From the IMG/VR virus record IMGVR_UViG_3300013902_000001, positions 84,000 through 147,999 of that record: DNA of 64,000 bases; one strand, 5' to 3'. Below are positions 1,774 through 41,361 of the stretch, in pieces (within the stretch, counting starts at the first letter, position 1; the number at the start of each line of letters is the position of its first letter). The translations under genes and the position numbers were made by a program. The DNA is from a virus. Its lineage: Duplodnaviria; Heunggongvirae; Uroviricota; Caudoviricetes. Under the pieces are notes generated by a model that saw nothing but the letters and a program-made list of their open reading frames with translations, was not told the DNA's origin and made no database searches.

Positions 1774-1986
1774 CTAACTTCGTTTTAATTCCTTAGTCAA
1801 AAACTCGATAAATTCTTCTTCTGAATTACACTGCTTCGCTAAGGTAAATCCTCCGAAGTTAGGATCGTTTATGAATATTTCTAATTTATATAAATCTCCA
1901 GAAATAGTTACTTTTAATTGCCCTATAAATATACAATTATATAACTTTTCTATGAGGTCAGTAATACGTTTTTCGAGACCATCCAT
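1774..1986 (-). CDS. Hypothetical protein; start overlaps the terL stop
   Basis: ATG at 1984-1986. The ORF ends at a TAG and may read on. Confidence 0.3.
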   Translation of the reverse strand: MDGLEKRITDLIEKLYNCIFIGQLKVTISGDLYKLEIFINDPNFGGFTLAKQCNSEEEFIEFLTKELKRS

Positions 1987-4900
1987 AAAGCATAGTTGAA
2001 TTATTTGTCTATTTTACTTCTCCATACTAAACTCGTCCATATTCATCCCTATAATAGCCTACATTACCTAGAAGTTTGACCCGAGATTCTGTTTTAACTA
2101 CTTTGTTAATCATTTCTTCATCTGCTAATAGAGCCATTCCTAAAGCAGCTACATAGTCGAATTTTCTTTTATTGGCATAAGAATACCTGAGTAATTCATC
2201 TATAATAGCTGGAAACTAAATTGTTTCGCAATAATCGGTTATATATTGTTGAATTAAATCGAGTTGATGGTCAATAATAGTCGGTGTTGCAGGAACTCCA
2301 AATTGTTTAAAATTTGTTTTCCCAGAAGAATTGGCGGTCGCCTAAGGACGGTGCATCATATAGGACAAAGCTCCAAATCGCTCAAAATACTATTTAACAC
2401 TAACACGAGTTGCCTCCATTAACATAGGTGCATTATAGAATTTACACAGTTTTAAAGCATTATCATAAGCAGTCTTAACGTCTTTCGGCCGATCCTTGTA
2501 AGTCGCCACTATTTTAGGTTGTTGTAATCCATAGGCTCGTCGAAAAACAACGACAGCAAACTAAGACACATCATCCTGACCAGTTGAGGTTGTACTATCT
2601 CCGTCTATTGAATCGCAGTTATGCGTTGGAATATAATGACACATAAAGGTACTTGTCTCACAGTGATAATTATAAACAATTCCAGTATATTTAGAAACTT
2701 CTATTTCAGAAATCTTAATATAAATATAATTACAGGTTTCATCCTCAAAGAAGCACCTTGGAATTGCATGATCCGTATAAGTTTTATATTCCCATTTATC
2801 CAATTTTAAATCCGGTGCAGAATACATTCTTTTAAATTTATTGATCATATCACCGTGAACATCTAATGTCCATGCTTGATTCACAACACTGAGTCTCTGT
2901 TGACTAGTAATCTGATGAACTTTCTTAGTTGATCTCATCCAATGAACTGTAGAAATAATTCCCAATGAGAAGAGAATATCTTGCATATCCTCTAATAATT
3001 TTAAGGAACAACTTACAGCATTATAAGAATCCCTACTTTTACATAAACAACCGTCAGCGGAAAAATATCCTACAATTAAATTCATTTTTAAATCATTCGG
3101 AAGAAACTTTACCCATTCTGGCAAATTTTTATTTTTTGCTCCAATTCCAAAATTTTCTTTGAAAAAATTCCAAAATTGTTGACAATTAAACAGAACTTCT
3201 GCAGAATTTCCGAGGCCTTTCTGCCTACTTTTTACATGTCTATTTAAAACTTCCGATATAATTCTTTTTGCCTTTTCTATATAAAAAGTTTCGTTTAGAT
3301 TAAATGTAATTCCGACACATCCACAAGGTCGGTTTTTAGTGGGAGTTGCGCACCAACCATCTCCTAAAATTAATCCTACTAACCACCAAAAATCTTTATT
3401 TCCTAATGGATTGCCGACTCTTTGATCTATACGAATATTCGATTCGTCCCATTTTTCCCACGGAATAGGTTTCTCGTGCTTGTAAATATTAGGAACTTTT
3501 ACAAAATCTCCAACTTTTACGTCCTTCATAAGTTTGAATCTAAAATCATATACGTAATATCGTCTATGAAGTCCGTGTTTTTGGGCATAGGCACCTCCAT
3601 GATAATGCTATTTAGGAGTTGCACAATATATAGGATGTTCGCCTGTAAAAGTTGTGGTGCTAAAGATATTATTCAACTTAACTTTGTAGATATTTTCATC
3701 TTCCTTTTGATATTGTTGAAGGTTTATGATATTTACCGGTTTTCCGTTAATTGAATATAATTTATCATCTAATGTTACGTCTTCAACTTTTTTAAGTCCA
3801 TCCTAAGTAAGAACTTTCTCGCCTGGAGTTAAACATCCAACGCAGTATAAATTCTTAAAAGGAACCCCAGCTGAGTCGCATAATGGCAATTCCGCGATTT
3901 CTATCTTTCCGGAACTATCGAACTGAATCATTGGCCTTTGAGTTCGATCACAATTATCTCCGTCCATCGGCCAGATTAATTTAGCCTTTTTAGGTTTTTC
4001 TACGATTTTATGGATTTCTATCGCTGCTAATTGATCTGCTAATTTCTCTCGATCAAATCGATTCTCGCCTTCCATAATAAAGGCATCTTCCGGGGTAAAG
4101 CAATACTCCGACTTTTTAATTAGAAGCGATTGTGGATCGTCTATTTGAGCCCACTGATCAAGATAATACTTTTTAGCACGCTCTTCGTCAACGACTCCCC
4201 TTTCATCAAATCCCACCTCACCATCTTCTCCACCAAACCACATCGAGTAAGATGGAATAAAATAGCCAGTCATTTGTGGTTCGCCATTAGCCATAGAAGT
4301 ATTATAGAAAGGAAGCATCGTATAACCTCTAGGATTATAAAACATCTTTTTCAAACCTTCTACAGCAGGACCCATATCCTGAGACGTTCCGAAAACAAAT
4401 CGATTCCCAACCCTTCGACCAAGAATTCGCACAAGTGCTTCCCCACGCTCATAAGTGGAAATCAAACAAGGGTTGTTACCAGACTCTTCGAAATAGATAT
4501 TTTCAGTACGACCACCACGGAGTTTATCTGGAGTATCGGCAGTAATTCCTTCAACTATAGATTTCTTTCCAGCTTCTACACCGTCCTGATCTACAGTCGA
4601 AGCGACTTTCTTCATTAAAGTATTAGTTTTTTGTTTATGAAGGCCTAACGCACCTTCAGTGCAAGAATCCAGAAAATCAAATTCTTGCCAGACTTTTGAT
4701 AGTGTGTCTTTCACATATTTTTCTAGAAAAGCAGTAACTACATTATTACTCTAATCTATAAAAGTAAAAGCATGAGCACAATTGGAAGCGGCTATCTCAC
4801 TCGCTCCGACTCCACGGCTCTTGAAAGCCAATCCATCATATCCAGCCTTTTTACACATATCTAGATAGTGGAAATACTCATACTATTTATTTACAAATAT

Positions 4901-5476
4901 AGGAAAATCTTCAGCACGCTGAGCTACACTACCTTCAGCTACGATAGGACTTAAAAGCCTATAATAGTTAAGAAAAAAGTAATTTTGCCCAGTAATAGTA
5001 TATTTCCCAACTGTATATCCATAAGTGCATCTTCGGATTTCTTCTGTCCAGTGTTGCTACCATTTATAGGTATCAGGGTAATAATCTGTATATCGGCCAA
5101 ATTTCCTATAATGATCTGCAGCTTCTGTAAAAGCTTTTGGATCGAAATCCAGTCCTTTATCTTTCGTTATAGGGCGATAGCCTGTAAGTTCATAAGATAA
5201 GGAAGGATCAAAATATTTGATTTTTTCAGTTTTAGGAACATCCCATTCCTTTACTGATTGAATGAGCTCTGGTTCTGGTTCTGGAATGGGATTTTTTTCT
5301 GCTTCCAGATACTCAGTCATAGCTTTTAATTCCTCAGCATCTTTTTGTGCTTTGGTTTTAGTTTTTCTAACATAAGCTTTTTTAGGAAGCTTAGAAACCA
5401 TTTGTGCTCGTTCTTCCGCTGTGGGAGCATTAACCCAAGCACTCTTTTCAAAAGATTTACTTTCTTTCTTTTTCAT
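1958..5476 (-). CDS. terL: Terminase large subunit (ATPase plus nuclease) interrupted by an intein. Read through six in-frame TAG codons; ends at TGA 1958-1960
   Basis: ORFs 5057..5476, 3803..4714 and 2561..3529 are in one frame, separated only by TAG. Plus-strand cta triplets sit at 5057, 4883, 4751, 3803, 3608 and 2561. The C-terminal nuclease-like region reads ...IWPMDGDNCDRTQRP...; an ATPase-like stretch FKSRGVGAS lies N-terminal to it. Confidence 0.7.
2615..3835 (-). mobile_element. Intein (about 407 aa) with a LAGLIDADG homing-endonuclease domain, inserted in terL
   Basis: Intein block A follows the extein ...KNLYCVG: CLTPGEKVLT(TAG)DGLKKVEDV. Two LAGLIDADG motifs are present (LVGLILGDGW and IVGYFSADGC). 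The C-terminal end reads ...FMCHYIPTHN followed by the extein Cys (CDSIDGD...). Confidence 0.7.
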
Positions 5477-5679
5477 CGTTCCATTAAGAAGGGTTTCTTA
5501 TCACCTCTCAACCCAGAACTCTCTTCCTGCTCCTCTTTATATTTTCTTTCGAGTGCTTTTAAACCATCTAATGCTTTTTCTATCTATTGCATTTCATTAA
5601 GAAAATCTCGAATTTTAAATACTGGAGCACCAGAATCTAGGCGTTCGTCAAAATCTATACTTTTAACAAACTCTTTCAT

Positions 5680-6054
5680 CTAATGGATTTTGTTAGTGTA
5701 AGTTTCCACTAACTGACCTGTAAGTGAAGATTTTTCCTGAATTTCTCTATACTTTTTACAAGCAGCTCGGAAAACAGGATCGTTATATTCGTCTTCTGTT
5801 AATCCAGAAGCTTCCATAGCCACTTTATGGCGATTGGCCGGAGTGTCCTTTGCCATAGGAGCACTCCAGTCAATTTCCATGTATATACAGATTAATTCTT
5901 TAAAACCTCTAAGTTTTTCATGCCCAGAAGGATCTTCAGGGCATTTATTTCTTTCATCAGTCCATAGATCAGCAAATTCTTTTATTAGAAGAATTTCTGG
6001 TTGATTAATAGTGATTTTGTTATTTTGATAATCGTAACCAAAAAATTTAATCAT
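5680..6054 (-). CDS. Hypothetical protein just upstream of terL; terminase small subunit is possible by position only
   Basis: 124-aa ORF ending in TAG, so it may be longer. No motif recognised. Confidence 0.25.
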   Translation of the reverse strand: MIKFFGYDYQNNKITINQPEILLIKEFADLWTDERNKCPEDPSGHEKLRGFKELICIYMEIDWSAPMAKDTPANRHKVAMEASGLTEDEYNDPVFRAACKKYREIQEKSSLTGQLVETYTNKIH

Positions 6055-6059
6055 CTCTG

Positions 6060-8267
6060 TTAATCTTTAATATATTGTGTTATTTTTCCACCGTGTTTAA
6101 AGGAATAATTATTTGTTCCAATATAAGGTCCGTAAGTTACCCCTCTATCAAATTCTGGCACAGGAGTGGTAATAGGCTAATATGTAGGGTATTGCAAATT
6201 TTCACCGTGAATTGCCGGTATTAGGGCTGCATCAGGCGCATCCCAATAAACATAACGTGTATATCCAGGACTTCTAAGTTGTCCCTTTTTATGACCTTTG
6301 GTCGGACGTGTGGTAATCGTTTTTTCTCCGGTTTTAGTAAAATTGCCGACATCATTATTGAAAGGGTTTGCTTCTATATATCCAGTATCATATCTGATCG
6401 TTCTCGATTTTTTAGGCCGAACTGTCTTTTTCCAATAAGTTGGTTTTGTACGAGTTCGGTATCTCATCCCAGAGCCCTTAGTAGCAAATCCAAGATAAGT
6501 TTCCGGAGCAAAGGCTGTGTCTAGAACAGTATCTACGAATCCGTTACCAGTAGATCCAGTAACGTCAGTAAAGTAAGTTGGGGCCCCTCCGGAATATCCA
6601 CTTAAAATAGTATTATTCAGTCGATTACTAGTCCAATCACCAAATTTATAAGATCTTTCACCACTTGCCCAATCTCTAATATCTTTTACCGTTCCCCACA
6701 TCAACTCACTCGCTGGAGTTAAAGAATTTATAATGCCGACTCCAGCTTTATTTTCAGCATCTGCTACTTCATTCTAAAATCTTCTAGCTTGAGCTGCTTG
6801 GGAATTAACGCGACCGTTATCAGCAATAACGCCCGCTGCTGACATTGCCTTTTGAGCTTCTGGATCATTAACGAGTTCTTGCATTTCCTATTTTGATAGG
6901 TTGTGATCCTTCATCCACTTATCATATCCATCAGCTTTTAACGCTCCTGAGGCTACAGCATTTTTAAATTCTCGAATTCCCACGGATCTATTATAACTTT
7001 CACCCCGATTTTTAGATACCTCTTGATCGTAGGCATCCCCTTCATCATTCAAAGCTCGAAGTTTAGACGCCACTTCTGGAGAAACATAATTCAAAGCATT
7101 CTAATAATGATTATAATACTAGGGATCAGTAACAGCATTAGAAGCGTTCATTAAATATTTTAACATTTCTGGAGAGTTGTAATATTCACTAGCGCGAGCA
7201 TTTTCTGCAGAACTCACCCCTTGAATTTTACCAGCAGGCTGTTTTCCTTGATACTAACCTTTTCGAGTAGCGGTAAGAGTAGAGTCTCCGAGACCAGTAA
7301 TCCCTAAAGCGGAAGCTGTTTGATCTCCAACCAAACCATCAACTTTTAGAATATCCTTGTGTTGATTTTGGAAATTTTTAATCGCTGCTAATGTTTCTGG
7401 TCCAAATTTACCGTCTTCTGCAATCTGTTTACCTAAAGCCTGTTTATTTAGTGCTTGCTGAATTTGCCTTATTTGATCGGAGGAATATCTTCGATTATGC
7501 CAATAAGAAGCATTAACCCCTCCTTGCTAGAAAAAATTTATTTCTCCGCCTTTCTTTTTTATAGGCAACCCAGTACAACTATCCACTTCCATAATCTTCC
7601 CACCTACTCGAGCCAACTTGCATTTACAAGGTTTGATAGGAAGCCCTCTTTGAGCTTTTTTAGCTTTCTTGGCTTTTCCGCCACATTTCATTTGCTGAGC
7701 ACCTTGCATCATTTGCTGAATAACTTCTGCATATTGTATAGCTTGAGGATCGCCTTGCTAAGCTCTTTTAAGAATTTCTTTAATAGCACTTTGAGCTTGT
7801 GGATTTCCAGTCATGGCGTCTTCTACTAGCGTTTTAATTTCTTCCATAGGATCGGCAGTTACTCCGCCTTCTTGCATATAATCTGTTACCATTTTACCTC
7901 CTGTTTTAAACCAATTCGGGTTAATTGAATGCAGTAAATCTTGAAACCAATTACGATAATCATTGGCCTTAATACCTTCCTCTACGTAACTTCTATAACG
8001 CTTTAGTCTTTCAGGGTTATTTCCAGTTACTTCTACTGTATTTGTTACCGGGTAACCAATCATAGAATTATCCTCTGGTTCAGTCTAAGTTTTATATTTA
8101 TAATGACTATCAGGCCCACTTAAATGAACTTCGTACTCACTAGTACTCCCCCAGGGAGAAGATCCTGTTACTGTAAAAGTTGTATCAGATTTAAGAGTAT
8201 TAGGATCGGTGATTACTTGAGGTTGAGATACCCTACGTCCATCAGATGTCGTTCTAAATTTTGTCAT
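6060..8267 (-). CDS. Virion-associated protein with a peptidoglycan-binding domain, about 735 aa, read through several TAG codons
   Basis: ORFs 8085..8267, 7758..8063, 7527..7712, 6888..7094 and 6177..6704 share one frame and are separated only by TAG. There is a PG_binding_1-like segment: QALGKQIAEDGKFGPETLAAIKNFQNQHKDILKVDGLVGDQTASALGI. The 5' boundary is a TAA at 8283-8285; the 3' boundary is a TAA near 6060. Confidence 0.5.
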
Positions 8268-8487
8268 GCTTCCATCAAATCTTTAGTGTTGAAAACTGCT
8301 TCTTGAATATACCCATCAGTTGTGAACCATCTGCAAACCATCCCTTGAAGGATTTTACCAGGGTTCTTTTCATCGTGAATGGTCATAGATTTCTTACGAT
8401 CTACGATCATAATAGGCTTGTTAGGAATGTCCTACTTTAGTGTTACGAGCATTCCTGGAGTAAAATAGAATTTCTCTTCTGTCATAA

Positions 8488-8820
8488 TTACTTCATTAAT
8501 GTTAAAAGTGAAGGTTCAGCAATAATCCAGTAATACTCGTCTCTGAATTTTACGATCCTGCACGTTCTAACATCGAAGTAACAATCATCCCCAGGGTTAG
8601 CATATTTACAATCTTTTCCGACTTCAATAATCTTACCGCATTTAATAGGATGTTCTTTCTTATCTACTTCTCCGGAATCTGGATTTTCAAATTCACCGTC
8701 TGATACTGTGAATCCCTCCTTAGTTTCTTTTACATCATAGGGATCCTCTTCATACATTTGAACCATTACGTTGTTATACAAAGGTACAATTTCATTTTTT
8801 AAATCATTAGCCATAATCAT
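8488..8820 (-). CDS. GroES-like co-chaperonin (cpn10 or T4 gp31-like)
   Basis: 110 aa. IVPLYNNVMVQ resembles GroES IRPLHDRVIVK; GKIIEVGKD...GDDCYFD...YWIIAEPSLLTLM resembles GEVLAVGNG...VGDIVIF...ILAIV. It lies directly downstream of the groEL homolog and ends in TAA. Confidence 0.5.
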   Translation of the reverse strand: MIMANDLKNEIVPLYNNVMVQMYEEDPYDVKETKEGFTVSDGEFENPDSGEVDKKEHPIKCGKIIEVGKDCKYANPGDDCYFDVRTCRIVKFRDEYYWIIAEPSLLTLMK

Positions 8821-8821
8821 A

Positions 8822-10270
8822 TTATTTTAAAATTAAACAATCACACGTTAAAATTAAACTAGCTGTATTAACAGCATTTAAAAGGGAATGTTCTGTAACT
8901 GCAAAAGGTTCTATAATTCCCATTTCATACAAATCTCCGTATTCTCCGCTTTTAAAGTTATAGCCATTCCAGAAAACATCGTCAGTGTTCAGATCTTTTC
9001 CTTGACTTAAAAGCTTAAATGGAATTTGTAATACATCATACAATTTACCGGAAACAGAACTTGGCACTCTCCGTATACTTCCGGAACCTGGTAAAATACC
9101 ACTTTCCAAAGCTGCTTGAGTGGCCATTACAGAATCTTCCACGCGATCTTTTCTCTCTTTTATTTCAACTTCAGAATATCCTCCAACATAAATAGTGGCA
9201 ATGCCAGAAGTAAAGTTAGCCAATCTTTTCTTGTGAAAATTCATTTCCATTTCAGTAACTTTTCCTTCTTCTATAATGCTTCTAATAGATGTTATTCGAT
9301 TCTTGATCTTTTCAGGATCCCCTTCAGTTCCTATAAAAGTTGTATTATCTTGTGAGATAATTACTTTCCGACAGGTCATTGATTCTCCTAAAAGAATCCT
9401 AAGATCTTCGATAGCAATTTCTCTAAAATTTCTATGTTCAGGACTTTTAACAGTGCACGATTTCAGCTTATCGTTACCTTGCTTATCATATAGATTACGA
9501 GCGAGGTTAAGAATAATTTCAGAATCGAAATCTGGTGCTATTAAAAGTAAAGATTTATCGGCTACCATAGCTCTGCCAGCTATTTCCGAAATCTTTTTGG
9601 TTTCTTCCATTTTAGTATCGGAAATATAAACCATTACATTTTCCAACACACATTGCCCCTTAAAGTTATTAACAAAATAAGGGGAAGAAAATCCACTATC
9701 GATTCTAAATCCTTCAGTATATTCAACTCGATCTGAAACATCTTCAGATTCAACAAACTGAACAATTCCATCTTTTCCAACTTTTGTAAAAGCTTCGGAA
9801 ACTAATTTGCCAATAACAGGATCATTATTAGCCGATAAAGTAGCAACTTTCTATAAATCCTCTGGAGAAGTTACTTCTCTTTTAAAAGTTTTAAGGTAAT
9901 CAATCGTTTTAGAACAATCCTGAGAAAGTTCTCGAGATAGTTCTATAGGATTTTCACAATCCTTAAATTCATTTACTAGTGCTCTAGCGATTACCAAACT
10001 AGTAGTGGAACCATCTCCAATAGTTTGAGCGGTTTTAACTGATATATCCCTCATTACTTCTATACCCATAGAAATATAAGGATCGGGATCATTTACGGCT
10101 GCTGCCACAGTAGCACCATCTTTTGTTATCTTGACCGAGGAAGGATATTTAATACACACATTCTTTCCTTGTGGTCCATACGTTTTTTCGACTGCATCTG
10201 CAATCAAATTTACACCTTCGATCAGCTTTTCTCTAGCATCTTGATCGAATTTTACATTAGCATAATTCAT
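8822..10270 (-). CDS. groEL: GroEL-like chaperonin (Hsp60). It contains one in-frame TAG (9851-9853) and a 60-nt segment (9781-9840) that is out of frame
   Basis: N-terminal MNYANVKFDQDAREKLIEGVNLIADAV...TAQTIGDGSTTSLV resembles GroEL [27 protein letters not shown]...AGDGTTTATVL. The middle KVGKDGIVQFVESEDVSDRVEYTEGFRIDSGFSSPYFVNN resembles [41 protein letters not shown]. The C-terminal ...GILPGSGSIRR...MGIIEPFAVTEHSLLNAVNTASLILTCDCLILK matches the GroEL C-terminus. Ends in TAA. Confidence 0.85.
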
Positions 10271-10467
10271 TCTCCAAATAATTTATTATATTCTTCTTTT
10301 GAGATCCAACGTTCAGTTGAATAAACTCCTAATAATTTCTTGTAATATTCTGGATTATCAGAAGTATTAATTTTATATTGAACCCAAATTCTTTGCTGAT
10401 CAAAATCTATCCATCTTAATCCAGCATCTATTAGTTTTAACATTCTTTCGCAGGTCATATTTCCCAT
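10267..10467 (-). CDS. Hypothetical protein; its TGA stop overlaps the groEL ATG (ATGA)
   Basis: ORF track. The stop, plus-strand tca at 10267-10269, shows TGA working as a true stop in this module. Confidence 0.4.
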   Translation of the reverse strand: MGNMTCERMLKLIDAGLRWIDFDQQRIWVQYKINTSDNPEYYKKLLGVYSTERWISKEEYNKLFGE

Positions 10468-10508
10468 TTATTCAATACACATTTTGAGGATGGACTTTTA
10501 CTTTTGGG

Positions 10509-10787
10509 CTACATCTTGCATCCACACCCCATTACAATATCTTTACCGGGGTATTTAACTAACTCTCCCGTCTTGATATTTATTCCCCTGCCACTATCGC
10601 ATCTATCAGTATCCTCATTATATAATGGGCATTCTCTACATATTTTCATTCGAGCTTCTGACAACTCGTCTTCTCGACCTAATGCCCAATTTGTATAGCC
10701 TTCGGCTATTTCCTTAACTTGATGAAAAGAGTTTATTCCAAACATATTAAATTTCAATAACGCATTTTTTTCCAGATAAAAGATCAT
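10509..10787 (-). CDS. Cys-rich zinc-ribbon protein
   Basis: CRECPLYNEDTDRCDSG...MGCGCKM. Confidence 0.35.
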   Translation of the reverse strand: MIFYLEKNALLKFNMFGINSFHQVKEIAEGYTNWALGREDELSEARMKICRECPLYNEDTDRCDSGRGINIKTGELVKYPGKDIVMGCGCKM

Positions 10788-10929
10788 TATACAATGATTT
10801 AATAATTGGATCTTTTGCGTGATCGTATTCTATTTGATAGCGTTTACGCTGATCCTCTGATATGCATTGTAGTATAACATATTTAGGAGTTCTTTTCTTC
10901 CGAAAAAGATTTTTAAGAAATTTAATCAT

Positions 10930-12341
10930 TCTTCTTTTGCATTAATAAAGGTAGTGCAAACATTGACGATTCTTTACTCAACCAGTTTGCAGCCTGATCG
11001 TAGTTTTTAATACTTCTAAAAAACTCGGTCATGTTATTATCCCAATTACCATCTTTAATATAATGCTTCTATGCATATTTAAGCATCTCTGGAGTTAATT
11101 TCTAAGTTGACTTTGTAAATCCGTAATAATCCTTTAACTAACTACCCCTAGCGGATAATTCTGTATTATTACCGTGTTCTAAGTAATATTGCATCTCCGG
11201 AGATTCTGCAGAGACATCAAATCCCTTTGCTTTCGTTTTAGGTGTGTGCGCTACATGGTCCATTTCATGAGAAATAACCTATGAATAATTATCCCGTATT
11301 TGAGGCACTTTAGAGTTGTATAATACAATAGGTTCGTTTATAACTCCAGGAGCACTAATTGTATGTGCTCCACCCTCACGAGTTGATGTAATTTCAAGCT
11401 ATTTCTAAAATGCAGCTTTTTGTGCATCGGGTAAGTCAGGACGAGTGGCCTTTATAAATGCATCAAATGACTCTTTATTAGCTATATCATAAGTTTTAGG
11501 TGACTATGTAGATAGCCGTGCTTTATGATATTCCAATGGACTTTTACCAAAATATTTTACCCACTTTGACCGAGCTAAAGGCTTTAATAGTCGGATTCCT
11601 TTCGAAATTCCCTGTATAGCTAAATCAAATGGTCCACTTAAAACAGTTCCTGCTACAACAAATTCTCCAACAGGATCCGTTCCAGACAGTGGTTGATCCT
11701 GCTCATATAATTTCTAAACCTTATCAAAAGCTTCTGGATCTTTAGGCAGTGGCCCAGAAGGATTCTAATATTTCTTTATTTTATTATCAAAAAATTCTAA
11801 GTAATTCATCATTTTATCCTCCAACTAGGCCCAATAACAACTCCCACTCCAATCTCTAATCCGTGATTTACTTGCATAGGATTAGTAGGGGTAGCGTTTA
11901 ATCCGTAACCTATATAAGGACCAACAGTAATATCCCACCCAAACTTTTTAGGCTTCTAAACAATCAACTCATTTTTCTGCAAATAAGAATGATTAAGCCT
12001 AACAGAATCAATATCAGAATTATAGCCATGGAAATTAATCTTTAGAGTTGTTTTGGTAGAATCAGTAGCTATAGTGTCTATATACTCCTTATAATCAATA
12101 GGAATATCTTTTACATAGACGGTATCACCTTTTTCTGTTACATAGACTGTATCAATCCGATCAATATACTTGATCTTAGTCTTTTCTTTAATAACTTCCT
12201 AGTCGATAAAAACAGTGTCGTGAACCTAGATATATTCTATATTAGATCCAGGTTTATTACAAGCAGGAATATTTACTAAAATCCCAATTCCAAACCCTAT
12301 AAATAGAATTAAGATATATTTCCAAATCTTTTTAAAATCCA
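10930..12341 (-). CDS. Membrane-anchored protein with an HExxH metallopeptidase-like motif, TAG-interrupted; possibly a lysis or peptidase function
   Basis: The reverse complement of about 12339 reads MDFKKIWKYILILFIGFGIGILV (N-terminal TM segment). The reverse complement near 11230-11270 reads ISHEMDHVAHTP (HExxH). No ORF of at least 60 aa appears in the track because TAGs break it up. Confidence 0.35.
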
Positions 12342-13184
12342 TTAGTATTCTATTTGTTTGCACTTATCTAATTCTCGTCTAAGTTTAAGATGCTTAACGT
12401 GATATTTTATCAACATTTCAGCTTCATCGGAAAGATATTCCACTGGAAATTCTTTCTTCTTCTTAAGATCCTTAACCTGAACTATTACAAGGCTTTTAAT
12501 AATAAAATCTGGATTAAGAGATTCAATCATTTTCGCGTATAAAGACAATTGCAACTAATATCGAATTCCGTCGCAGTCATCTAATTTATTAAGCGGAAAT
12601 TTCATTCTCTTAGTCTTTTTCTTTCCCACTTCAAACATAGACCGGAATTTAATCGAATCGTTCGTTTTCCAATCTATTATAGTGATTTCATTACCATCTT
12701 TTATTACTAAATCGGGAATCCCTACTAAAGTAAATTCCTCGTCTATAGGCAATTCTATTCTAAATTCTGGGAAAATTCCCTTTTCTGTATTTAGAAAGTT
12801 TTCTATTTTTTGCACCTAATAAAGATCGGTATCTACTCCTAGATTTTTAATTCCTTTTAAATCAGTGCAAAACATATTATGGATAGTTTCGTGAGTTGAA
12901 GTTCCTATCGATTTAGCTTCTTCGTTCTTTTGCTTCCATTCTGCCTATAATAGATTTCGCTCAGTTTCAAATAAAACAGGATCAGGGATAAATCTTTTAT
13001 CGATTCTTTTAGATCTTAGAAGAACCATTTTTATAGAATCAAAATCCGGATGGATTTTCTCCAAAGTTTTATAAGAAAGCCAAAACTCAGAATCGAAGTT
13101 ATGGTAATCATTTAGAATTTGAGTTACGCTCAATTTTTCCATACACATGTATTCATTTATCATGCAAAGATAGATAAAATTCAA
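12342..13184 (-). CDS. PD-(D/E)XK-family nuclease-like protein (Cas4/RecB-like fold), TAG-interrupted
   Basis: ORFs 12555..12815 and 12342..12554 are adjacent codons in the same frame, separated by TAG. Motif: GIPDLVIKDGNEITIIDWKTN (D...E.K). 12945..13184 probably forms the N-terminal part. Confidence 0.4.
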
Positions 13185-13287
13185 CTTTTAAAAAATAAAA
13201 AATCGTAAGATCCCAATTAGGAACCTTACGATTAGTTTATTTCTATTACAAATCCCACACCACTGCGGGATAATAGAATAAATCAAA

Positions 13288-13521
13288 TTACTTTTTAACA
13301 GCTTGTTTCTTAGGTTTCTCCAAAAGCTGCTTCAAATGCCATTCTACGAGCTTAATAATTTCAGGACTGTAATTATCCTTATTCTCCATCATTTGAATCA
13401 GCTTACCCCATTGCTCACCCAGTTTATCAGCACGAAGTGCTTGGTATTCAGCTTGTAATTGTTGTGCTTGCTGAAGAAGCTGATCATAAGCTTCTTTTAA
13501 CTTGTCATAATCATTTTCCAT
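13288..13521 (-). CDS. Small coiled-coil protein
   Basis: Q/E/K-rich heptad-like sequence, 77 aa. Confidence 0.3.
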   Translation of the reverse strand: MENDYDKLKEAYDQLLQQAQQLQAEYQALRADKLGEQWGKLIQMMENKDNYSPEIIKLVEWHLKQLLEKPKKQAVKK

Positions 13522-13900
13522 AAGTCTATTTTATTTTATTAAATTGCTCTATTGGATCGATTTCTGGAGATAATTTTTTTAACTCCTCAAAAAATCTTTC
13601 ATTATACTAACTCTTTTTTGCCCCTAGATGTGTAAATCCGATTTCCAGTGCATATTGATTACATTCTTCGTTTATTCTAGGAACTAAAGTCTAAATTGAA
13701 TAATCTTTTACTATCTGAGTAAGATGCCATTGTTCTAAAATAATATCAGGCCAAAGTTCACCGAAATTCATATTCTAGCAAATATCTACATTGCGCTTGT
13801 AAAGATTTATATATTTATCTTTTAATTCCTGATTATTAAATCGCATTACGCTGGTATTATACCACCCTTCGATATTTTCTTGAATTTGTGGTTGAATTTC

Positions 13901-14236
13901 CTAGATTTTTCTTACGGTTTCTATCAGTCTTATATTCTTATCAAATCGATTTAATAATTCTTCGTCTTCATAAAGCGCTGTTAAAACATCAGCCTGACAT
14001 TTTTCTACTTCTGCATAAACTCTTCCTTTTTTAAAAAACGCGTCCCCGTCGATTAAAATATCTCCTAGATTCATTTTTTCCAACGCTATAAATTTCATAC
14101 TGGCGGCAAAGTGATAATTATTAGTAATAGTGTTTTTAGATACGATAACTTCGTCATACGGGACGTGTGATAAAATTTCAGCTCCTAGTGGGTCAGTTAC
14201 CAAATAAATTTTATATCCGTTATTTTTTACTAACAT
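13901..14236 (-). CDS. Hypothetical protein
   Basis: ORF track, 111 aa, ends at TAG. Confidence 0.3.
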   Translation of the reverse strand: MLVKNNGYKIYLVTDPLGAEILSHVPYDEVIVSKNTITNNYHFAASMKFIALEKMNLGDILIDGDAFFKKGRVYAEVEKCQADVLTALYEDEELLNRFDKNIRLIETVRKI

Positions 14237-14337: not shown

Positions 14338-14754
14338 TCATTTAACTTTATAATTGTTTATACAAACATGTTTACTACTTGAAGGGTCATAGCTAATATG
14401 CAACCAGATAGACCCACGACTATTAGATTCGAAAAGACATTCCGAAAATTTACCCAATCGTTTTGCGATATCAAATATTTCTTTTGTCTTAGCATTAGTG
14501 TCCCCTATAATATCGGCAGCACAGCCTCTAAGATGAAACGAGTTAGGCTAACCTCCTACTTCTTTATTGAGTTTAGAACACCGATAACCGCTTGTAACAG
14601 TTATCGGCTTACCAAACTCTTCTCTTATAGGATCTAGAACTTCATTAATTAAACGTTCTAGATTAACCTTTACTTCCTCTGAGGGAGTATTGTCGATTTT
14701 CTTTTTAGAGGCTACAGAAGACTTGCACAACTCATTAATCGTGAAGTACTTCAT
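14338..14754 (-). CDS. Peptidase M15-family (VanY / L-Ala-D-Glu peptidase-like) endolysin, with one in-frame TAG
   Basis: MKYFTINELCKSS...ITVTSGYRCSKLNKEVGG(TAG)PNSFHLRGCAADIIGD... matches the M15 signature (SGYR...SxHxxGxAxD). Ends at TGA 14338-14340. Confidence 0.6.
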
Positions 14755-15124
14755 CTTTCTTTTTCTTATTATACTTACGCTTAGGCTTTTTAACTGGTTC
14801 TGGAGCTGCTTCTACTTTTACTAGGTTAAGCAACGGAAGAACCTTATCAGCAACAGCCTTAAGTTTCTTAAGAACCTCATCAAACTTCCCTATAGGAAAA
14901 GCTTTTACCAAATCATCTTTCAAACTATCCAACTCTTTAATCTTACCATTAAGGGTGTTAAGAGTGGCCTTAAGTTTCAATTTAGTTTCATCGAGCTCAT
15001 TCATAAGATCGATATTCTTTTTACGAAGCTTATCCACGTATTCTGCATAAATAGCTTCGTATATAGCTTCTTTAAGCCATTTGCAGTTGAGCAACTGCTT
15101 TACAATCCATTTTTTCAATTTCAT
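14735..15124 (-). CDS. Coiled-coil protein
   Basis: K/L/E-rich, 129 aa. Confidence 0.3.
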   Translation of the reverse strand: MKLKKWIVKQLLNCKWLKEAIYEAIYAEYVDKLRKKNIDLMNELDETKLKLKATLNTLNGKIKELDSLKDDLVKAFPIGKFDEVLKKLKAVADKVLPLLNLVKVEAAPEPVKKPKRKYNKKKKDEVLHD

Positions 15125-15279
15125 ATATTAATTATAATTAATTTCGGACTGAGTAGGAGTTTATGCGATCTAAAAAATTAAGCACTTCTTGCTCATCTTG
15201 TAATCCTTCAGATACTATATAACTCCATATATCTTCCAATTCATTTATGGAAGAGTCTAGTTTCTTTTGTAAGGTTTCG

Positions 15280-15618
15280 TCAATCATAAATCCCGTAACG
15301 CCTTTTTAAATCATTAAGATCTTTCTCATTATAAGCTGATAAAACTGTATTTACATTCAGCCTATATTTATAAGGAGCTTCTCGAACATAAGGTTGGTCG
15401 CTCACTATCTTCTCTTTAGTTTCAATCCCCTTAATCTTATTTTCTAATTTTTTTAACTCCTTTTCTACTAATCGAAAATCTTCTGGGATGGGATTTAGAT
15501 ATTCCACCTTATAATTAGTAGGAGTATTCTTAGCAACCCATTTCTTTACTTTTGTAGTACGGGTAATTTTATCACCCTGGATTATTACTCCAGGTAAATC
15601 TTTTAATTCATTAGTCAT
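15280..15618 (-). CDS. Hypothetical protein
   Basis: ORF track, 112 aa. Confidence 0.3.
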   Translation of the reverse strand: MTNELKDLPGVIIQGDKITRTTKVKKWVAKNTPTNYKVEYLNPIPEDFRLVEKELKKLENKIKGIETKEKIVSDQPYVREAPYKYRLNVNTVLSAYNEKDLNDLKRRYGIYD

Positions 15619-15634
15619 AAGTCATTGATTATTA

Positions 15635-15934
15635 GTTGCTTCGCCTGGATTCGAACCAGGACTCCAAGTTTTCTTCACCACTCTATATTACTATAGCCAT
15701 TTCTGTTGTGGTCCGGACTTTGTCTTCACCTTACTTTTACAAGCTTAGGTGTCTCGTATAAAGTCTCTACACTCGGCTTAATAGCCTAGCTCGGCGTTGT
15801 CCCTAAGGAGTTTCACCGACTTAGCGAGATTTACATCTGAAAGTTTCCTACCAGAGCTCCTGTCTGTAACTTACTGAAAATCAAGTAGTTACAAGGAAGA
15901 GACTTGTTTGCTAACCCTTACAATTCACGAAGCA
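15635..15934 (-). tRNA. Candidate amber-suppressor tRNA (anticodon CUA) interrupted by a group I-like intron of about 225 nt. By plus-strand coordinates the exons are 15898-15934 and 15635-15672
   Basis: Minus-strand 3' end: T-arm CCTGG-TTCGAAT-CCAGG, then acceptor CGAAGCA plus A. The exactly complementary 5' acceptor strand TGCTTCG lies 300 nt upstream (plus-strand cgaagca at 15928-15934). Anticodon stem CAAGT/ACTTG. 5' loop part CUCU, 3' loop part AAA. Only the split CUCU|...G|AAA satisfies the group I rule (exon ends in U, intron ends in G), giving loop CU-CUA-AA. A GGAG candidate internal guide sits about 40 nt into the intron. U1:A72 is a Gln-like feature. Confidence 0.5.
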
Positions 15935-16026
15935 GTAAAAATCCTCCCGTGTTTCACAACATGAGGAGGAAAATCATTTATATGAAAAAATAATAATTCA
16001 TCAACCCACAGTAGGTTCGTTGCATA

Positions 16027-16284
16027 TTATGTATTCGTCAAAATCTTCTTCAAATCTTCTTCTGTAAATTTTCCTTTATGAGTTGCTATTCTTCTTCCTG
16101 ATTCCGATAATACTAAGAAAGCAGGAGGATTACCATAAACATTATAATCAGACATAACATCTGGATCTTCATCACAATCGAATATCTCGTAATCGAGACT
16201 ATTCTCAGAACAAAATCTTTGAATCAGATCCTTCATAGATTTACTATATCTGGAGCAACACGTGTGGAAATAAATTATTTTCAT
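16027..16284 (-). CDS. Small thioredoxin/glutaredoxin-like protein, tentative
   Basis: 85 aa, N-terminal HTCCSRY. Weak. Confidence 0.25.
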   Translation of the reverse strand: MKIIYFHTCCSRYSKSMKDLIQRFCSENSLDYEIFDCDEDPDVMSDYNVYGNPPAFLVLSESGRRIATHKGKFTEEDLKKILTNT

Positions 16285-16943
16285 TTGAACTTTACAGTCA
16301 ATTTATTATCCTTAATTTCAATCCTAACGTTTTCATCAGAATGCCAGATAGCACTAGTAACTTCAGTAAGAATCGGAGTTGGAAGTTCTATAGTTTCCTT
16401 TTCGCGAAGTTCTTCTATACAAGCTTCTATAACAGAATCTTTAATAGCATCAAGCAAATCCCCACTCATTTCGTCAGAATCCTCATAATCATCAGCTTCA
16501 TCAATTATATCCATTATAGGCGTATAATCAGTAACCATTTTCAGATAATATTCCAACCAGATATGTTCATTCTCAGGAATTTCATTAAGCAGTGTGGCCA
16601 GTAATTGAGCTTTGAACTTAGGATCCTCATCCTCTTCTGGAGTTTCGTCAGATTTAATTTCTCGTTCAACGTCGTTAAGAATACACTTCAGCGTAATTGC
16701 TACCAAAGGAAGGAGATCTCGATGTTTCTTACTAGCGAGCTCAGCGTCATAAACATCCTCAGTTTGTGTGCAGTAAGCACTAATCAATTTAGTAATTTTA
16801 CGAAGCGTAAAATATTCAGATTCATTCATTCCGAGATACTCAGAAATAAACTTTCTCCAACCCAGTTTCTTAAGCAAATTCTTTTCGGTTTCGGTAAGAT
16901 CTCTCAAAAGATCTTTTTCCAAAAGCATTAATTCATCATTCAT
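16281..16943 (-). CDS. Acidic hypothetical protein
   Basis: 220 aa, D/E-rich. Confidence 0.35.
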   Translation of the reverse strand: MNDELMLLEKDLLRDLTETEKNLLKKLGWRKFISEYLGMNESEYFTLRKITKLISAYCTQTEDVYDAELASKKHRDLLPLVAITLKCILNDVEREIKSDETPEEDEDPKFKAQLLATLLNEIPENEHIWLEYYLKMVTDYTPIMDIIDEADDYEDSDEMSGDLLDAIKDSVIEACIEELREKETIELPTPILTEVTSAIWHSDENVRIEIKDNKLTVKFK

Positions 16944-17281
16944 TGTAAAAATAATTTAAAAGTTTTTCAAATTCGTTAATTTCCTCATCAGTTTGAGTGT
17001 TTTCAGCTATATGTCTCTTAAGAGCTTTCCACTTTCTCATAACCTTCTTTTGAATCCCTTGTTGTATGAACTAATAACTCAGTTCGTCAGGAATTTCAAT
17101 ATCATCTATTTCATTTAAATAATCATTATCCATATTTCTCTTAATTTGACAATGCAAAGTTACTGCTTTTTCAGCAGTTAAAAAATCGAGATATATGGAA
17201 TTTATAAAATCAAATAAAATCCCACCTCATTTCGATAGAAATAATAAAAGCGAGCCTTCTAATAAGAAAACTCGCTTTAAC

Positions 17282-34077: not shown

Positions 34078-34111
34078 TTAGTATCCCACTCCAGAAATGG
34101 GGTGAAATTTT

Positions 34112-35311
34112 TTGTTTATGAAAACTCCAGAAAATATAAGAAAATTTCGAAAATATCTAAAGGATAATAACATTCAAGAACATGTGATAGATTTCTCGGA
34201 TCCAGAAGCAATTGTTATTGGAGCATATTGTAGTTTAGCAGGACCTTATAAATTTCATTTTTATGAGTTTAGTAAATTCGGAATGATTCATTTTACTCCT
34301 AGAGGGCAAGTTACTAGTAATTTTGGAATTTATAGACTATTAATAGAATCAGCTTTAATTGATAAAAAATTAATAAAATTAGGTATTGTTTTAACAGTTT
34401 ATAGGTATAGTATTCTTAAATGGATTTATGATCACCAAAAACTTGTTAAAAATCTCAATGATTTAGGATTAAACTTCGATGAATATCTATATGATAGAAT
34501 TATTTCTGAAGATTCCAATCCTAAAAAAGCCTTTAAATATGATCCTAGAATTTATTTAAGTGCTCAGCATAATCATAATAATTATGACACTACTTATAAA
34601 GCAATTGATTATATTCAAAGTGTTTTAAAAGAATCGTGGAAATTTTATCAAGATAAAAACTATGATTATAATACTAGAGTTTTATTATTAAGTAAATCTG
34701 AATTTAGTTATGGTCCAGCCTTAGGTAATTATACAAAAGATCCTAAGTTAGTCCGATATATTGCCGAACACAATAGTTCGAAGTTGCGCGATTATTGGAA
34801 TATGAGAGATAAACTTAAAGAATTTGTAAATCTAAAAGATTATCCGAAATTTCCACAAAATTTGTCTAAAAAACATGATGAATTAGTAGTTTTTTACAAT
34901 AAATATCAAGACAAGCTTCAGAAAGAAAAGTTAATTCCACTACAAAAAGAATATGAGAAAAAATTCTTAAAATCTGCTAAAAAATATGAGTATGAATTTG
35001 AGGATTATATAATTAAAACATGTTCTGATTTAATGGAATTGATTGTCGAAGGACGAGAATTAAATCATTGTGTAGCTAGTTATACAGATTCCGTTTCAAA
35101 AGGTAAAGAATATATCTTATTTTTAAGAAAGAAATCTGAGCCAGAAATTCCTTTTTATACTATTGATCTTATCCCTGATGGGCGAATTCGACAAATTCGT
35201 GGAAAATGTAATTGTTTGCTTACTCCAGAATTAAAACAAATTATTCAACCTTGGATTCAAAAGTTTAATTTAACTGGAAATCCAGACGAAATTCATTATC
35301 ATTTATGGTAG
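34112..35311 (+). CDS. PcfJ-like domain protein
   Basis: The C-terminal EGRELNHCVASYTDSVSKGKEYILFLRK...IPDGRIRQIRGKCNCLLTPE resembles the PcfJ-like family. Confidence 0.35.
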   Translation: MFMKTPENIRKFRKYLKDNNIQEHVIDFSDPEAIVIGAYCSLAGPYKFHFYEFSKFGMIHFTPRGQVTSNFGIYRLLIESALIDKKLIKLGIVLTVYRYSILKWIYDHQKLVKNLNDLGLNFDEYLYDRIISEDSNPKKAFKYDPRIYLSAQHNHNNYDTTYKAIDYIQSVLKESWKFYQDKNYDYNTRVLLLSKSEFSYGPALGNYTKDPKLVRYIAEHNSSKLRDYWNMRDKLKEFVNLKDYPKFPQNLSKKHDELVVFYNKYQDKLQKEKLIPLQKEYEKKFLKSAKKYEYEFEDYIIKTCSDLMELIVEGRELNHCVASYTDSVSKGKEYILFLRKKSEPEIPFYTIDLIPDGRIRQIRGKCNCLLTPELKQIIQPWIQKFNLTGNPDEIHYHLW

Positions 35312-35457
35312 ATAGTAAAGAATTAATCGATCAAAGACAATATGCAGTCTATGCTCATCAATTTAGGGCATGGTTTACAGCATTTTATGATAAGGATAGT
35401 AATTCCTGGGACACTGAAACCAGTAGAATTCCTATTGGAGAAACTGACGAATGTATT

Positions 35458-35486: not shown

Positions 35487-35865
35487 TTTTATGGGCCTAG
35501 TTGGTTTTGATTCACATTAGTGAAATATAAATCTGTCAGGATGGTAACGCCCTACGTTGTTGTGTATATCCTTCAATTTTTTTACATTTCAACAATACGT
35601 TACGAAAACAATAAATGCAGATAGCTACAAAGCTTTCCGTGCTGCTGCTTAATTAGCAAGCACCTGGTAATGCTCAACCAAGGAACATAATGAGCATGGC
35701 AGTTTCCTCGTTCTTAAAATGAGGTGGTGGAGGTGGATATCAAACCGATATCCCCGAAGAGATAAAACACTCTTAAAAAGGTTATGACAGTAAAGAATTT
35801 ATATTAAACGGTGCTGAAGACGACAGTTCGATTCTGTCTAGGTCCACATTAAATTTTTAATCAAT

Positions 35866-39662: not shown

Positions 39663-41361
39663 TTATTATTTAAAAGCTTGTAATGTTTTAGAATCTTGTC
39701 AAAATCTAGAACAGTGTGCTACCGCTAGAAATTATCTTTTACTTTTAAGAAAGAAATTTCCAGTTGAAGAGTCTGTGGTTAAGTTGTTGGATCTGCTTTC
39801 TATAAAACAAAATGTTGTAAATTCACCTAATTTAATAGAAGAATAATGGGTTGTTTTCATAAAATTTTTGCTCGGCAAGAGCGAAAGAAAAAACTAATTG
39901 CAGAAGTTAATCGTGGAGAAGATTGGGACTGGGGATATATTTATTCACTTCTTGCAGTTAAGTTGGAGAATATTCGAGATTATGCTCAAAATGATTCTGT
40001 TTGCGACCCAAAAGACTGGGGAATTGAATGGCTAACTAGAGCTATTAATCTATGTCGGCATTTATCTGGAAAGTCAAAGTATCCGAGTAAAATTAATATT
40101 AATAATGATTTTAGATTTCTTAGTAAATCAGAGCTTCAATTTTACCACAATCCAAAAAATAGATTAGATTATGTCTATTATAGGGAAATTTATGATTATA
40201 AAGCTAAAAATCTTTTATTCGAAATTCTTAAGAATAAAATAGAGTTATGGTGGGATTAGATAATAATTTTTAGATACTAATTAAAATGAAGAGACGTGAA
40301 ATTTACTTTAAACGAGGTTATCCAACAATTTGACCCTGATAATATAGAAAAAAATTTATATTTATCAGCCTGGATAAGAAATTATTCTAGAGTTTGGATA
40401 AATGATTGGATTCCAGTTTATGGATTCAGAGGGGCTAGTTCTCAGCTTCAAACATTCCTAACGGCAACTAGTAATGAAGAAAAATGTGTTCGAGAAATCG
40501 CTATAAAATCTTTACAAGAATGGTATGGAGATAATTAAGGAACATTTTAAATCGATTCATTCGTTATTAAATACTTTAAACAGTCGTCCTAATAATTCAG
40601 TAATGGCAATCGAAGATTCTTCTGAATCAGGGAGTTATGATTTTACTGGAAGTCATAGTTATGATGAAGCTGTTCAGTTATTTAAAGAGGGATATGTAGA
40701 AATTCTTCCTAAAATAATGTCTAAAATGAAGAAGATGGAGAAAGATCTATATTCTGAATTTCAATTTACAAAAAAGATACGTCCACAAAATTCGATAGAA
40801 GGAGTTGTTCCTAATGTTCCAAATGCTATATTAGGTCTTCCACAATCTATGATTGATATGAAAAGATTTCCACAAAAGCAGAAAACTTTAAATATTATCT
40901 ATGAAATGGGAGCTAATTGTGGAACTGATAAAGAGTTGTTTATAAATGCAGGAGTAGTTTTATTAACGGCAATTAAAATCTTAGAAACTAAGAGAATTTC
41001 TGTTAAATTAACACTCGGATTTATGGCTGTAAAAGCTGATGAACAAGGGGGTTTTCCAACTGTTGATTTAAAAGATTATGGACAAAGATTAGATTTGCAG
41101 AAGTTATGTTTTCCATTAGCTCATCCTTCTATGTTTAGAAGAATCGGGTTTAAATGGCTAGAAACTAATCCTGATATTACAGATAAAGACTTTCGATTTG
41201 GTTATGGTAGAAGTCCTGCTGATCAAACGGAAGAATGGAAAGATTTTGTCAATCAGTTAAATTTACTAAAAAATGCTCGTGTATTACGAGCTCAAGATAT
41301 TGAAGAAATGAGATTCGATGTTAGTAAATTAATTGACTATTTAAATATAAATAATGCCTAG
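39649..41361 (+). CDS. Four hypothetical genes (39649..39846, 39846..40259, 40296..40538, 40525..41361)
   Basis: ORF track. No motif recognised. Confidence 0.3.

Follow-up and report, generated by a model that had tools for sequence, protein, structure and literature searches.

A gut phage gene pair in a TAG-recoded late module that probably encodes a GroEL-type chaperonin and its own GroES-type lid

Identification of the chaperonin gene pair

In a stretch of 64,000 nucleotides from a tailed phage (IMG/VR record IMGVR_UViG_3300013902_000001, positions 84,000 to 147,999; hereafter the window), two adjacent minus-strand genes at 8488-10270 encode a full-length homolog of the chaperonin GroEL (Hsp60) and, directly after it, a Cpn10/GroES-like protein, both of which had been recognized there in an initial annotation made from the sequence (Table 1). 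Analyses of the two proteins, of their genes and of related loci indicated that they are likely to be a phage-lineage group I chaperonin system, in which a compact GroEL-type ATPase is accompanied by its own GroES-type lid and both are encoded within a late, TAG-recoded gene module. The pair is probably functional.

The two genes are closely packed. The start codon of the co-chaperonin gene lies one base past the GroEL stop codon, and a gap of two bases separates the co-chaperonin gene from the conserved open reading frame (ORF) that follows it. On the other side, the TGA stop of a small ORF overlaps the start codon of GroEL (ATGA), an arrangement that suggests operon-like translational coupling, and relatives also have a small ORF at this position. 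The surroundings of the pair look like one tightly packed, co-translated block, and the GC content of the GroEL gene is the same as that of its surroundings. Scans for promoters and terminators between positions 8000 and 11200 gave matches only at the level of shuffled sequence, and a megablast comparison of window positions 6000-14000 with GenBank phages returned no match.

Table 1. Positions of the chaperonin genes and of the small ORFs that flank them in the window
Feature	Coordinates	Strand	Remarks
GroEL/Cpn60 homolog	10270..8822	-	482 sense codons + TAA; one in-frame TAG
In-frame TAG, GroEL codon 140	9853..9851	-	sense codon, most likely Gln; GAG/GAA (Glu) in relatives
Divergent Cpn10/GroES-fold putative co-chaperonin (lid), 110 aa	8820..8488	-	zero in-frame TAG
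Conserved 73-aa ORF, directly 3' of the co-chaperonin	8485..8264	-	in-frame TAG at codon 18 (8434..8432)
66-aa ORF upstream of GroEL	10467..10267	-	no Pfam match

The GroEL homolog

The window GroEL matched the Pfam family Cpn60_TCP1 (PF00118) with E=1.6e-37 (129.8 bits against a cut-off of 34.3), and GroEL and Hsp60 chains in the PDB matched it with E values of about 1e-84 to 1e-55. Its residues 5-398 aligned to GroEL ~4-416 and its residues 436-481 to ~478-523. The AlphaFold2 model of P0107, a 98%-identical family member (mean predicted local distance difference test score, pLDDT, 89.8), superposed on GroES- or Hsp10-bound subunits of GroEL or Hsp60 with TM-scores of 0.84-0.90. In both the alignment and the P0107 model, the recoded translation covers the equatorial, intermediate and apical domains, failure of which had been named at the outset as grounds for rejecting the assignment; the sequence and the predicted structure thus agree that all three domains are present.

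We compared individual residues by aligning the protein with Salmonella GroEL (E. coli numbering) and 120 family members. Residues T30, G32, P33, K51, D52, G53, D87, D398, G414 and G416 are kept, and each is conserved in 113-120 of the 120 members. The changes in the nucleotide site are conservative (GDGTTT to GDGSTT, and G415 to S), and by this comparison the ATP-binding and catalytic residues of the phage GroEL are intact. Y203 and F204 are unchanged, and position 199 has F in place of Y.

The protein is shortened in several places. There are gaps of four residues around K105, of 18 residues in the apical domain (301-318) and of ~24 residues within 417-477 of the equatorial domain, the last being a region in which the alignment is uncertain. 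K105 and E434 fall in gaps in all 120 members, and V464 does so in 98 of them and in the window protein. At other inter-ring positions A109 is replaced by D and R452 by K (variable in the family), and E461 and S463 align with N and T, at positions where most family members have a gap. The protein ends at the equivalent of residue ~523, and the last ~25 residues with the Gly-Gly-Met repeat tail are missing. As aligned, the canonical set of inter-ring contacts is absent. Since these contact residues are deleted or changed, we infer that the phage GroEL forms a single ring, or else has a different ring-ring interface.

The putative co-chaperonin

The similarity of the 110-aa protein to GroES is distant, with E values of 0.03-0.2 in phmmer comparisons with PDB GroES chains. 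A word-indexed protein search recovered only one near-identical cluster, so that an exhaustive HMMER search was needed, and this identified 105 cluster representatives of the lid family. A profile of 80 lid homologs matched T. thermophilus GroES over its full length (E=3e-8), whereas the same profile matched the GroES-like domains of alcohol dehydrogenases with E ~0.008 over ~25 residues. The Pfam family Cpn10 was detected at E<=0.01 in 36 of the 80 members.

Structure prediction gave a comparable result. The AlphaFold2 model of the lid had a pLDDT of 90.4, and its top 33 PDB matches in a Foldseek search were all Cpn10, GroES or gp31. T4 gp31 (1g31_A) was matched with E=6e-4, a TM-score of 0.57 and 15% identity, and GroES chains matched equally well or better. 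The best matches among viral structures were two gut-virome proteins (TM-score 0.75), which UniProt names '10 kDa chaperonin' or gives a label mentioning mHsp10. The named top viral matches were all GroES/Cpn10 except one protein of phage phi14:2, and about ten had no name. From the profiles and the model, the partner of GroEL has the Cpn10/GroES beta-barrel fold. The exception among the viral matches is BFVD entry S0A2F3 (Cellulophaga phage phi14:2, 129 aa, uncharacterized; E=7.5e-4); phi14:2 may hold a cryptic GroES-fold protein, one that is not encoded directly downstream of its GroEL.

The lid differs from GroES in two conspicuous respects. The roof hairpin is missing, as indicated by a 9-residue gap at GroES ~47-55 and by the model having no strand between residues 68 and 78. 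In addition, when aligned with GroES and phage Cpn10s, the segment from the first strand to the GK(I/V)IEVG strand is ~16 residues longer than in GroES. Within this loop is a motif of the form Gly-hydrophobic-x-hydrophobic, with a polar middle residue, that aligned to GGIVL of GroES and reads EGFTV in the window protein and SGLxL in the family. T4 gp31 is likewise said, after Hunt et al. 1997, to be without the roof hairpin and to have a longer mobile loop, these being the two traits that separate it from GroES. Marine et al. described a deletion of the roof hairpin in representatives of three viral GroES clusters, and polar loop positions in some viral GroES clusters (PMC5649160). Because the hairpin is missing both from those viral representatives and, reportedly, from gp31, it would by analogy not be required for co-chaperonin function.

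TAG recoding and translation of the GroEL gene

On the minus strand from position 1 to ~20.7 kb, reading with stops restricted to TAA and TGA gave long ORFs with up to 12 in-frame TAGs: 12 in a portal fragment, 11 in a terminase of 1180 codons, nine in a peptidoglycan (PG)-binding protein of 741 codons and 10 in an ORF of 320 codons. The plus-strand genes (~21-64 kb) have almost none. These reading frames indicate that TAG is a sense codon across the minus-strand module and not in the plus-strand replication module. The chaperonin pair lies within this same-strand late module and its GroEL gene carries an in-frame TAG, in agreement with the initial annotation, which had placed the pair in a TAG-recoded region.

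Under the standard code the GroEL frame is split into a 139-aa ORF and a 275-aa ORF with a GTG start, and the 203 nt between them are conserved GroEL sequence in the same frame. Full-length GroEL, as read here, needs decoding of the TAG. Contigs with ~89% nucleotide identity to the window and the same GroEL were found in human-gut metagenomes (L004-L009, the longest 172 kb). One of these has no TAG in GroEL, in the others TAG occupies codons 47 and 122, and codon 140 is GAG or GAA in all of these relatives. In a comparison of ~4,700 aligned codons with close relatives, TAG had been exchanged with a sense codon at 67 sites. Because 42 of these 67 sites are CAA or CAG, TAG is most likely read as Gln, a reading that has also been put forward for crAss-like phages (PMC7886860).

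Purifying selection acts strongly on both genes. Relative to L004 and L005, dN/dS (Nei-Gojobori) was 0.03-0.05 for the parts of GroEL on both sides of the TAG and ~0.03 for the co-chaperonin gene. The low values before and after the TAG therefore indicate that the whole GroEL frame is translated and constrained. ARAGORN and Rfam searches identified no suppressor tRNA within the 64-kb window, in which the sole tRNA is tRNA-Glu(TTC).

The chaperonin genes have TAG at one of their 13 Gln-type codons, compared with 30% across the module, a difference that is not significant (Fisher p=0.12). ORFs at 14735-16955 (-) have no TAG. Some plus-strand genes appear to end at a TAG behind which a second stop, TAA or TGA, soon follows at a distance of a few codons (e.g., 34106-35326, 39831-40280, 40507-41367 and 61935-62993). 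This is the pattern expected if TAG acts as a stop early in infection and is read through late, the back-up stop limiting the extension. In the same standard-code module there is a match to the full Rfam model of tmRNA at 35493-35849 (+), with 49.8 bits against a gathering threshold of 47 (E=1.2e-16), on which ARAGORN was silent. A phage tmRNA in this position in a TAG-recoding phage could bear on ribosomes stalling or terminating at stop codons.

Relatives of the pair and conservation of gene order

The GroEL homolog is a member of a metagenomic clade that numbers at least 120 protein clusters. Identity within this family is 46-98%, the proteins measure 465-530 aa, and the contigs that encode them reach 155-177 kb. 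At least 597 matches were obtained to cellular proteins from bacterial and archaeal contigs taken as one genome per species, and the best among the matches listed were 30-35% identical and came from many phyla. In a crude neighbour-joining (NJ) tree the family occupied its own long branch, apart from the cellular and the other phage GroELs. This tree holds a faulty 3-residue 'Bacteroides' entry that distorts the tip P0115, and only the gross separation of family and cellular sequences was used. Based on the low identity to cellular GroELs and the separate position of the clade, these sequences point to an old phage lineage, not a recent capture from a host, which settles in favour of the phage the question of origin left by the initial annotation.

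The order of the genes is conserved along with their sequences. In six further loci that span the clade (GroEL 48-57% identical), a lid homolog of 111-117 aa (39-50% identical) lies directly after GroEL. The lid gene has this position in L004-L012 and in L098-L100, and the spacing between the two genes is 0-16 bases in all nine loci carrying the GroEL clade. Past the lid the order is usually the 73-aa gene and then a PG-binding protein, and in L012 these are followed by a long ORF at the position of the terminase and by a portal gene (Pfam P22_portal). The order GroEL, co-chaperonin, 73-aa gene, upstream of terminase and portal where the loci reach that far, is thus kept down to ~48% GroEL identity.

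Homologs of the 73-aa protein (44-97% identical) follow the lid in five related loci; in a sixth locus the homolog is close by. The protein had no match in Pfam, and PHROGs held no family for it or for the lid. A supposed likeness to small DUF2158/YodC-type proteins was dropped, as Pfam gave no such match. The chaperonin module may include the 73-aa protein as a third component, or the protein may be one of its clients.

One of the loci, L011 (GCA_030526175.1, JAUNDJ010000001.1, 155,709 bp), was deposited as the metagenome-assembled genome of a 'Bacillota bacterium' and shows GroEL followed by the co-chaperonin in the same arrangement as on the phage contigs. It is most likely a phage genome that was binned as a bacterium. 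Its sister L012 has an identical GroEL and co-chaperonin and runs on to the portal gene.

Comparison with known chaperonin systems

The closest precedent is the set of viral operons described by Marine et al. (2017, ISME J, PMC5649160), who found GroEL followed by GroES in marine virioplankton, in 70 of 133 paired contigs. These operons were linked to podovirus-like phages related to Cellulophaga phages. Bacteroidetes-like viral GroELs that are ~70% identical were also reported there (PMC5649160). The window pair resembles those operons in having the gene order reversed relative to bacteria, a GroEL clade distinct from cellular sequences, and a roofless lid with a polar loop residue. It differs from them in its gut lineage, its contigs of ~155-177 kb, its TAG recoding, its shorter GroEL (482 aa) and the loss of inter-ring contacts. 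Both genes are also present in phages in GenBank, among them Flavobacterium phage immuto (GroES before GroEL), Cellulophaga phi38:1, and Podoviridae sp. ctfjg026 (GroEL before Cpn10). Viral GroEL-then-GroES pairs have therefore already been described, and the window pair is not unprecedented. The rarity in phages stated in the initial annotation holds only in relative terms, as a GroEL-like match is present in 270 of 50,697 phage records, a few of these being bacterial contigs.

With E. coli GroEL-GroES and the T. thermophilus complex (4v4o), the phage proteins share the three-domain fold (TM-score up to 0.90), the nucleotide and catalytic residues, Y203 and F204, and a lid that is a Cpn10 barrel with a Gly-hydrophobic loop motif. 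Unlike E. coli GroEL, to which it is 30-35% identical, the phage GroEL is without K105, E434, V464, residues 301-318 and the Gly-Gly-Met tail, and the hydrophobic residues of helices H and I are changed. The lid differs from E. coli GroES in being roofless and in having a loop longer by ~16 residues, and the gene order is reversed. The mitochondrial Hsp60-Hsp10 system is a group I chaperonin that has a lid of its own and can function as a single ring. Its structures 9es0 and 6mrc were among the best matches to the phage GroEL model (TM-scores 0.85-0.86); the two are only ~30% identical in sequence, and single-ring behavior of the phage protein would follow from the missing contacts.

T4 gp31 is a co-chaperonin with which host GroEL is re-tooled for folding of the capsid protein gp23. 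The lid resembles it in size (110 versus ~111 aa) and in predicted fold, a likeness that is structural only (1g31_A), and we regard the lid as acting like gp31, not as a member of its family. A GroEL-less relative in which the lid gene stands alone next to packaging genes would fit the gp31 strategy as well, whereas the window phage, unlike T4, also encodes its own GroEL.

As a phage-encoded GroEL homolog the window protein joins EL gp146, OBP gp246 and AR9 gp228. The OBP protein is a third phage GroEL, beside those of EL and AR9, that is not known to come with a phage-encoded lid. The EL structure 6tmt matched the window GroEL only partially and far more weakly than cellular GroELs did (E=1.7e-31), and the two belong to different clades. 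Single-ring forms occur among phage GroEL homologs (PMC7185714, PMC9598537), the AR9 chaperonin being a single ring (PMC9598537).

Short GroELs of ~490 aa with gaps at E434 and V464 are also found in the Crassvirales (Steigviridae) phages phi14:2 (g105) and cr108_1 and in Dulem virus 41. In phi14:2 and cr108_1 there is a gap at S463 too, and the terminase and portal genes lie downstream of GroEL on its own strand. These proteins are, however, only 30-33% identical to the window GroEL, and no TAG recoding is noted in the annotations of the three genomes. When the sequences were read, the gene directly downstream of GroEL bore no likeness to GroES in any of the three. Since their downstream genes are not GroES-like, the pairing is not general to short phage GroELs.

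Interpretation of the pair and alternatives

If the pair is a chaperonin system of its own, the GroEL would form a heptameric ring capped by a heptameric lid, with the long lid loop (EGFTV) docking on the diverged apical groove of GroEL. The complex may go through its cycle as one ring, in the way of mitochondrial Hsp60-Hsp10, and a roofless lid with a long loop could give a taller cage, as is said of T4 gp31. The pair would be made late, when TAG-reading suppressor activity is present, and its clients would be phage proteins needed for morphogenesis, the capsid protein among them. That the pair is dedicated to the folding of virion proteins in late infection, as the initial annotation had suggested, is a reasonable proposal. 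Taken as a whole, the interpretation given in that annotation is largely right, and partly supported by the present data; it overstated the rarity of the pair and its structural-module context.

Several observations weigh against a dedicated ring and lid. Taken alone, the 110-aa protein falls short of the Pfam cut-off for Cpn10 (PF00166), scoring 15.8 bits where 21.1 are needed (E=0.014). The lid loop is predicted to be ordered, at least in part, with pLDDT values of 83-93 and two short strands, and it has conserved NPY and NPD(S/T)GE motifs that are not in the aligned GroES and phage Cpn10s; this region may not be a classical mobile loop. In the GroEL, the hydrophobic residues of helices H and I by which E. 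coli GroEL binds GroES have been replaced (L234S, L237A, V263A and V264R). For the phage EL chaperonin, no interaction with E. coli GroES was reported, and its mechanism appears to be encapsulation-independent (PMC7185714). Low TAG use in the pair was dropped as a timing signal (p=0.12), and the timing of its expression is not readable from TAG use. Finally, the existence of a related contig type that has the lid but no GroEL within 4 kb means that the lid may also, or originally, work with the host GroEL.

In that contig type, a long-form lid homolog of 180 aa with an N-terminal extension of ~65 aa (P0044) is encoded at the equivalent locus of contigs of 54-132 kb (L101, L102; 2099-8543). The order of genes there is nuclease, Zn-ribbon gene, P0044, 73-aa-like gene, putative terminase and portal, and the 87-aa ORF after the lid in L101 clearly resembles the 73-aa ORF by eye. 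No GroEL was identified within 4 kb of P0044 (tblastn E>0.4; 8.5 kb inspected per contig). About half of the 105 lid family representatives are of the long form. Because P0044 loci have no GroEL within 4 kb, the lid gene is more widely distributed than the ring gene, and GroEL has either been added to a gp31-like, lid-only strategy or been lost.

These loci are the main support for the alternative that we regard as the strongest, though still improbable, in which the lid works mainly with host GroEL in the manner of T4 gp31 and the phage GroEL is a later add-on that may act alone or on other clients. The P0044 motif, SGLLI, is nearer to GGIVL of GroES than that of the window lid, and the roofless form and long loop of the lid are traits ascribed to gp31 as well. 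This alternative does not account well for the lid lying 0-16 bases after GroEL in nine of nine clade loci, or for the apical groove of GroEL having diverged together with the lid, and the genomes with P0044, inspected over 8.5 kb per contig, may carry a GroEL elsewhere. We also considered, as a tentative and more specific form of the dedicated system, that a minimal, obligately single-ring GroEL, having lost its entire inter-ring interface, an apical hairpin and the C-terminal tail, co-evolved with a roofless, long-looped lid in a lineage that first had only the gp31-like lid and added the ring later. If this speculation is correct, it would mark the first demonstration of a phage GroEL working with a co-chaperonin of its own, and the pair would be a natural single-ring GroEL-GroES outside organelles.

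It is considerably less probable that the 110-aa protein is a GroES-like barrel but not a co-chaperonin, and that the phage GroEL is lidless like that of EL, for which a mechanism independent of encapsulation and of E. coli GroES has been suggested (PMC7185714). The score below the Pfam Cpn10 cut-off and the ordered loop would fit this, and the GroES fold also occurs in the N-domains of alcohol dehydrogenases, which matched the lid profile and model weakly. However, the match of the profile to GroES is full length at E=3e-8, compared with ~0.008 over ~25 residues for the dehydrogenases. A Gly-hydrophobic motif at the position of the mobile loop, strictly conserved adjacency to GroEL, and viral structural matches that are named as chaperonins also argue for a co-chaperonin.

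We give very little credence to a recent capture of GroEL from a host, or to bacterial DNA mis-assembled into the contig. Some phage GroELs are indeed host-like, as in the crude NJ tree that of Bacteroides phage DAC16 falls among Phocaeicola and other Bacteroidota, and ~70%-identical, Bacteroidetes-like viral GroELs have been reported (PMC5649160). The best cellular matches among those listed to the window GroEL are nevertheless 30-35% identical with no preference for a phylum, the same short form is found in at least 120 clusters from phage-like contigs, and the gene itself has a recoded TAG, start and stop overlap with its neighbours and the GC content of its surroundings. Just as improbable is a GroEL broken by its TAG, as a pseudogene or as a 139-aa fragment with a separate C-terminal ORF: the standard code does stop at codon 140 and yields the 139-aa and 275-aa ORFs, and the window has no suppressor tRNA, but dN/dS is 0.03-0.05 downstream of the TAG, the 203-nt inter-ORF stretch is in-frame GroEL, relatives have TAG at other codons of an otherwise intact GroEL, and the neighbouring genes for portal and terminase, which are essential, carry 11-12 TAGs each.

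The preferred reading, a GroEL-type ring with a lid of its own, would make the pair a useful system, as the GroELs of EL and AR9 have been described without a phage lid (PMC7185714, PMC9598537). With it one could ask what the minimum size of a group I chaperonin is, and whether one ring and a lid suffice. The GroEL clade is populous, with at least 120 clusters, and is frequent in gut metagenomes. A practical lesson is that gene calling with the standard code splits this GroEL into pieces of 139 and 275 aa. Nothing here alters the principles known of viral chaperonins.

Genomic neighbourhood and phage identity

The identifiable genes around the pair encode a lysozyme, two Peptidase_M15 proteins, a PD-(D/E)XK nuclease, a PG-binding protein, a terminase and a portal protein. 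The pair sits between genes of lysis or cell-wall type and the terminase-portal genes. No capsid or tail genes were identified adjoining it, the window ending inside the portal gene, and the initial placement of the pair among capsid and tail genes gives way to a setting of cell-wall hydrolases, nuclease, terminase and portal. The plus-strand module encodes a DNA polymerase, a helicase, ATPases and an HNH endonuclease.

The terminase (TerL) and portal proteins are 29-31% and 20-29% identical, respectively, to those of named crAss-like phages, and both are 43-47% identical to unclassified gut 'Bacteriophage sp.' records. By these comparisons the phage is a distant relative of the crAss-like phages, from the gut. 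A Zeta group of crAss-like phages with large genomes has been described by Yutin et al. (2021) in terms of genome size, inteins or introns, and recoding of late genes (PMC7886860), and the phage possibly belongs to it, as genome size (172 kb for the contig of a relative), the apparent intein and late TAG recoding fit that description. A text search of the main text of papers on large crAss-like genomes (PMC7886860, PMC12386605) found neither 'GroEL' nor 'chaperon', and a search of the literature on crAss-like phages and GroEL or chaperonins found nothing specific.

The TerL ORF (1958-5497, minus strand, 1180 codons) contains an in-frame insertion of ~430 residues that starts with CLTPGEKVL and ends in ...THN/C. 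The insertion matched Pfam LAGLIDADG_3 (E=8e-7) and looks like an intein with a homing endonuclease.

A Cys-rich, Zn-ribbon-like protein (CxxC...CGC; phrog_13558, E=5e-8) is encoded upstream of the chaperonin block, at 10455-10880 (-). In the GroEL-less contig L101, an 88-aa ORF just upstream of the lid (3718-3984) resembles this Zn-ribbon-like protein by eye.

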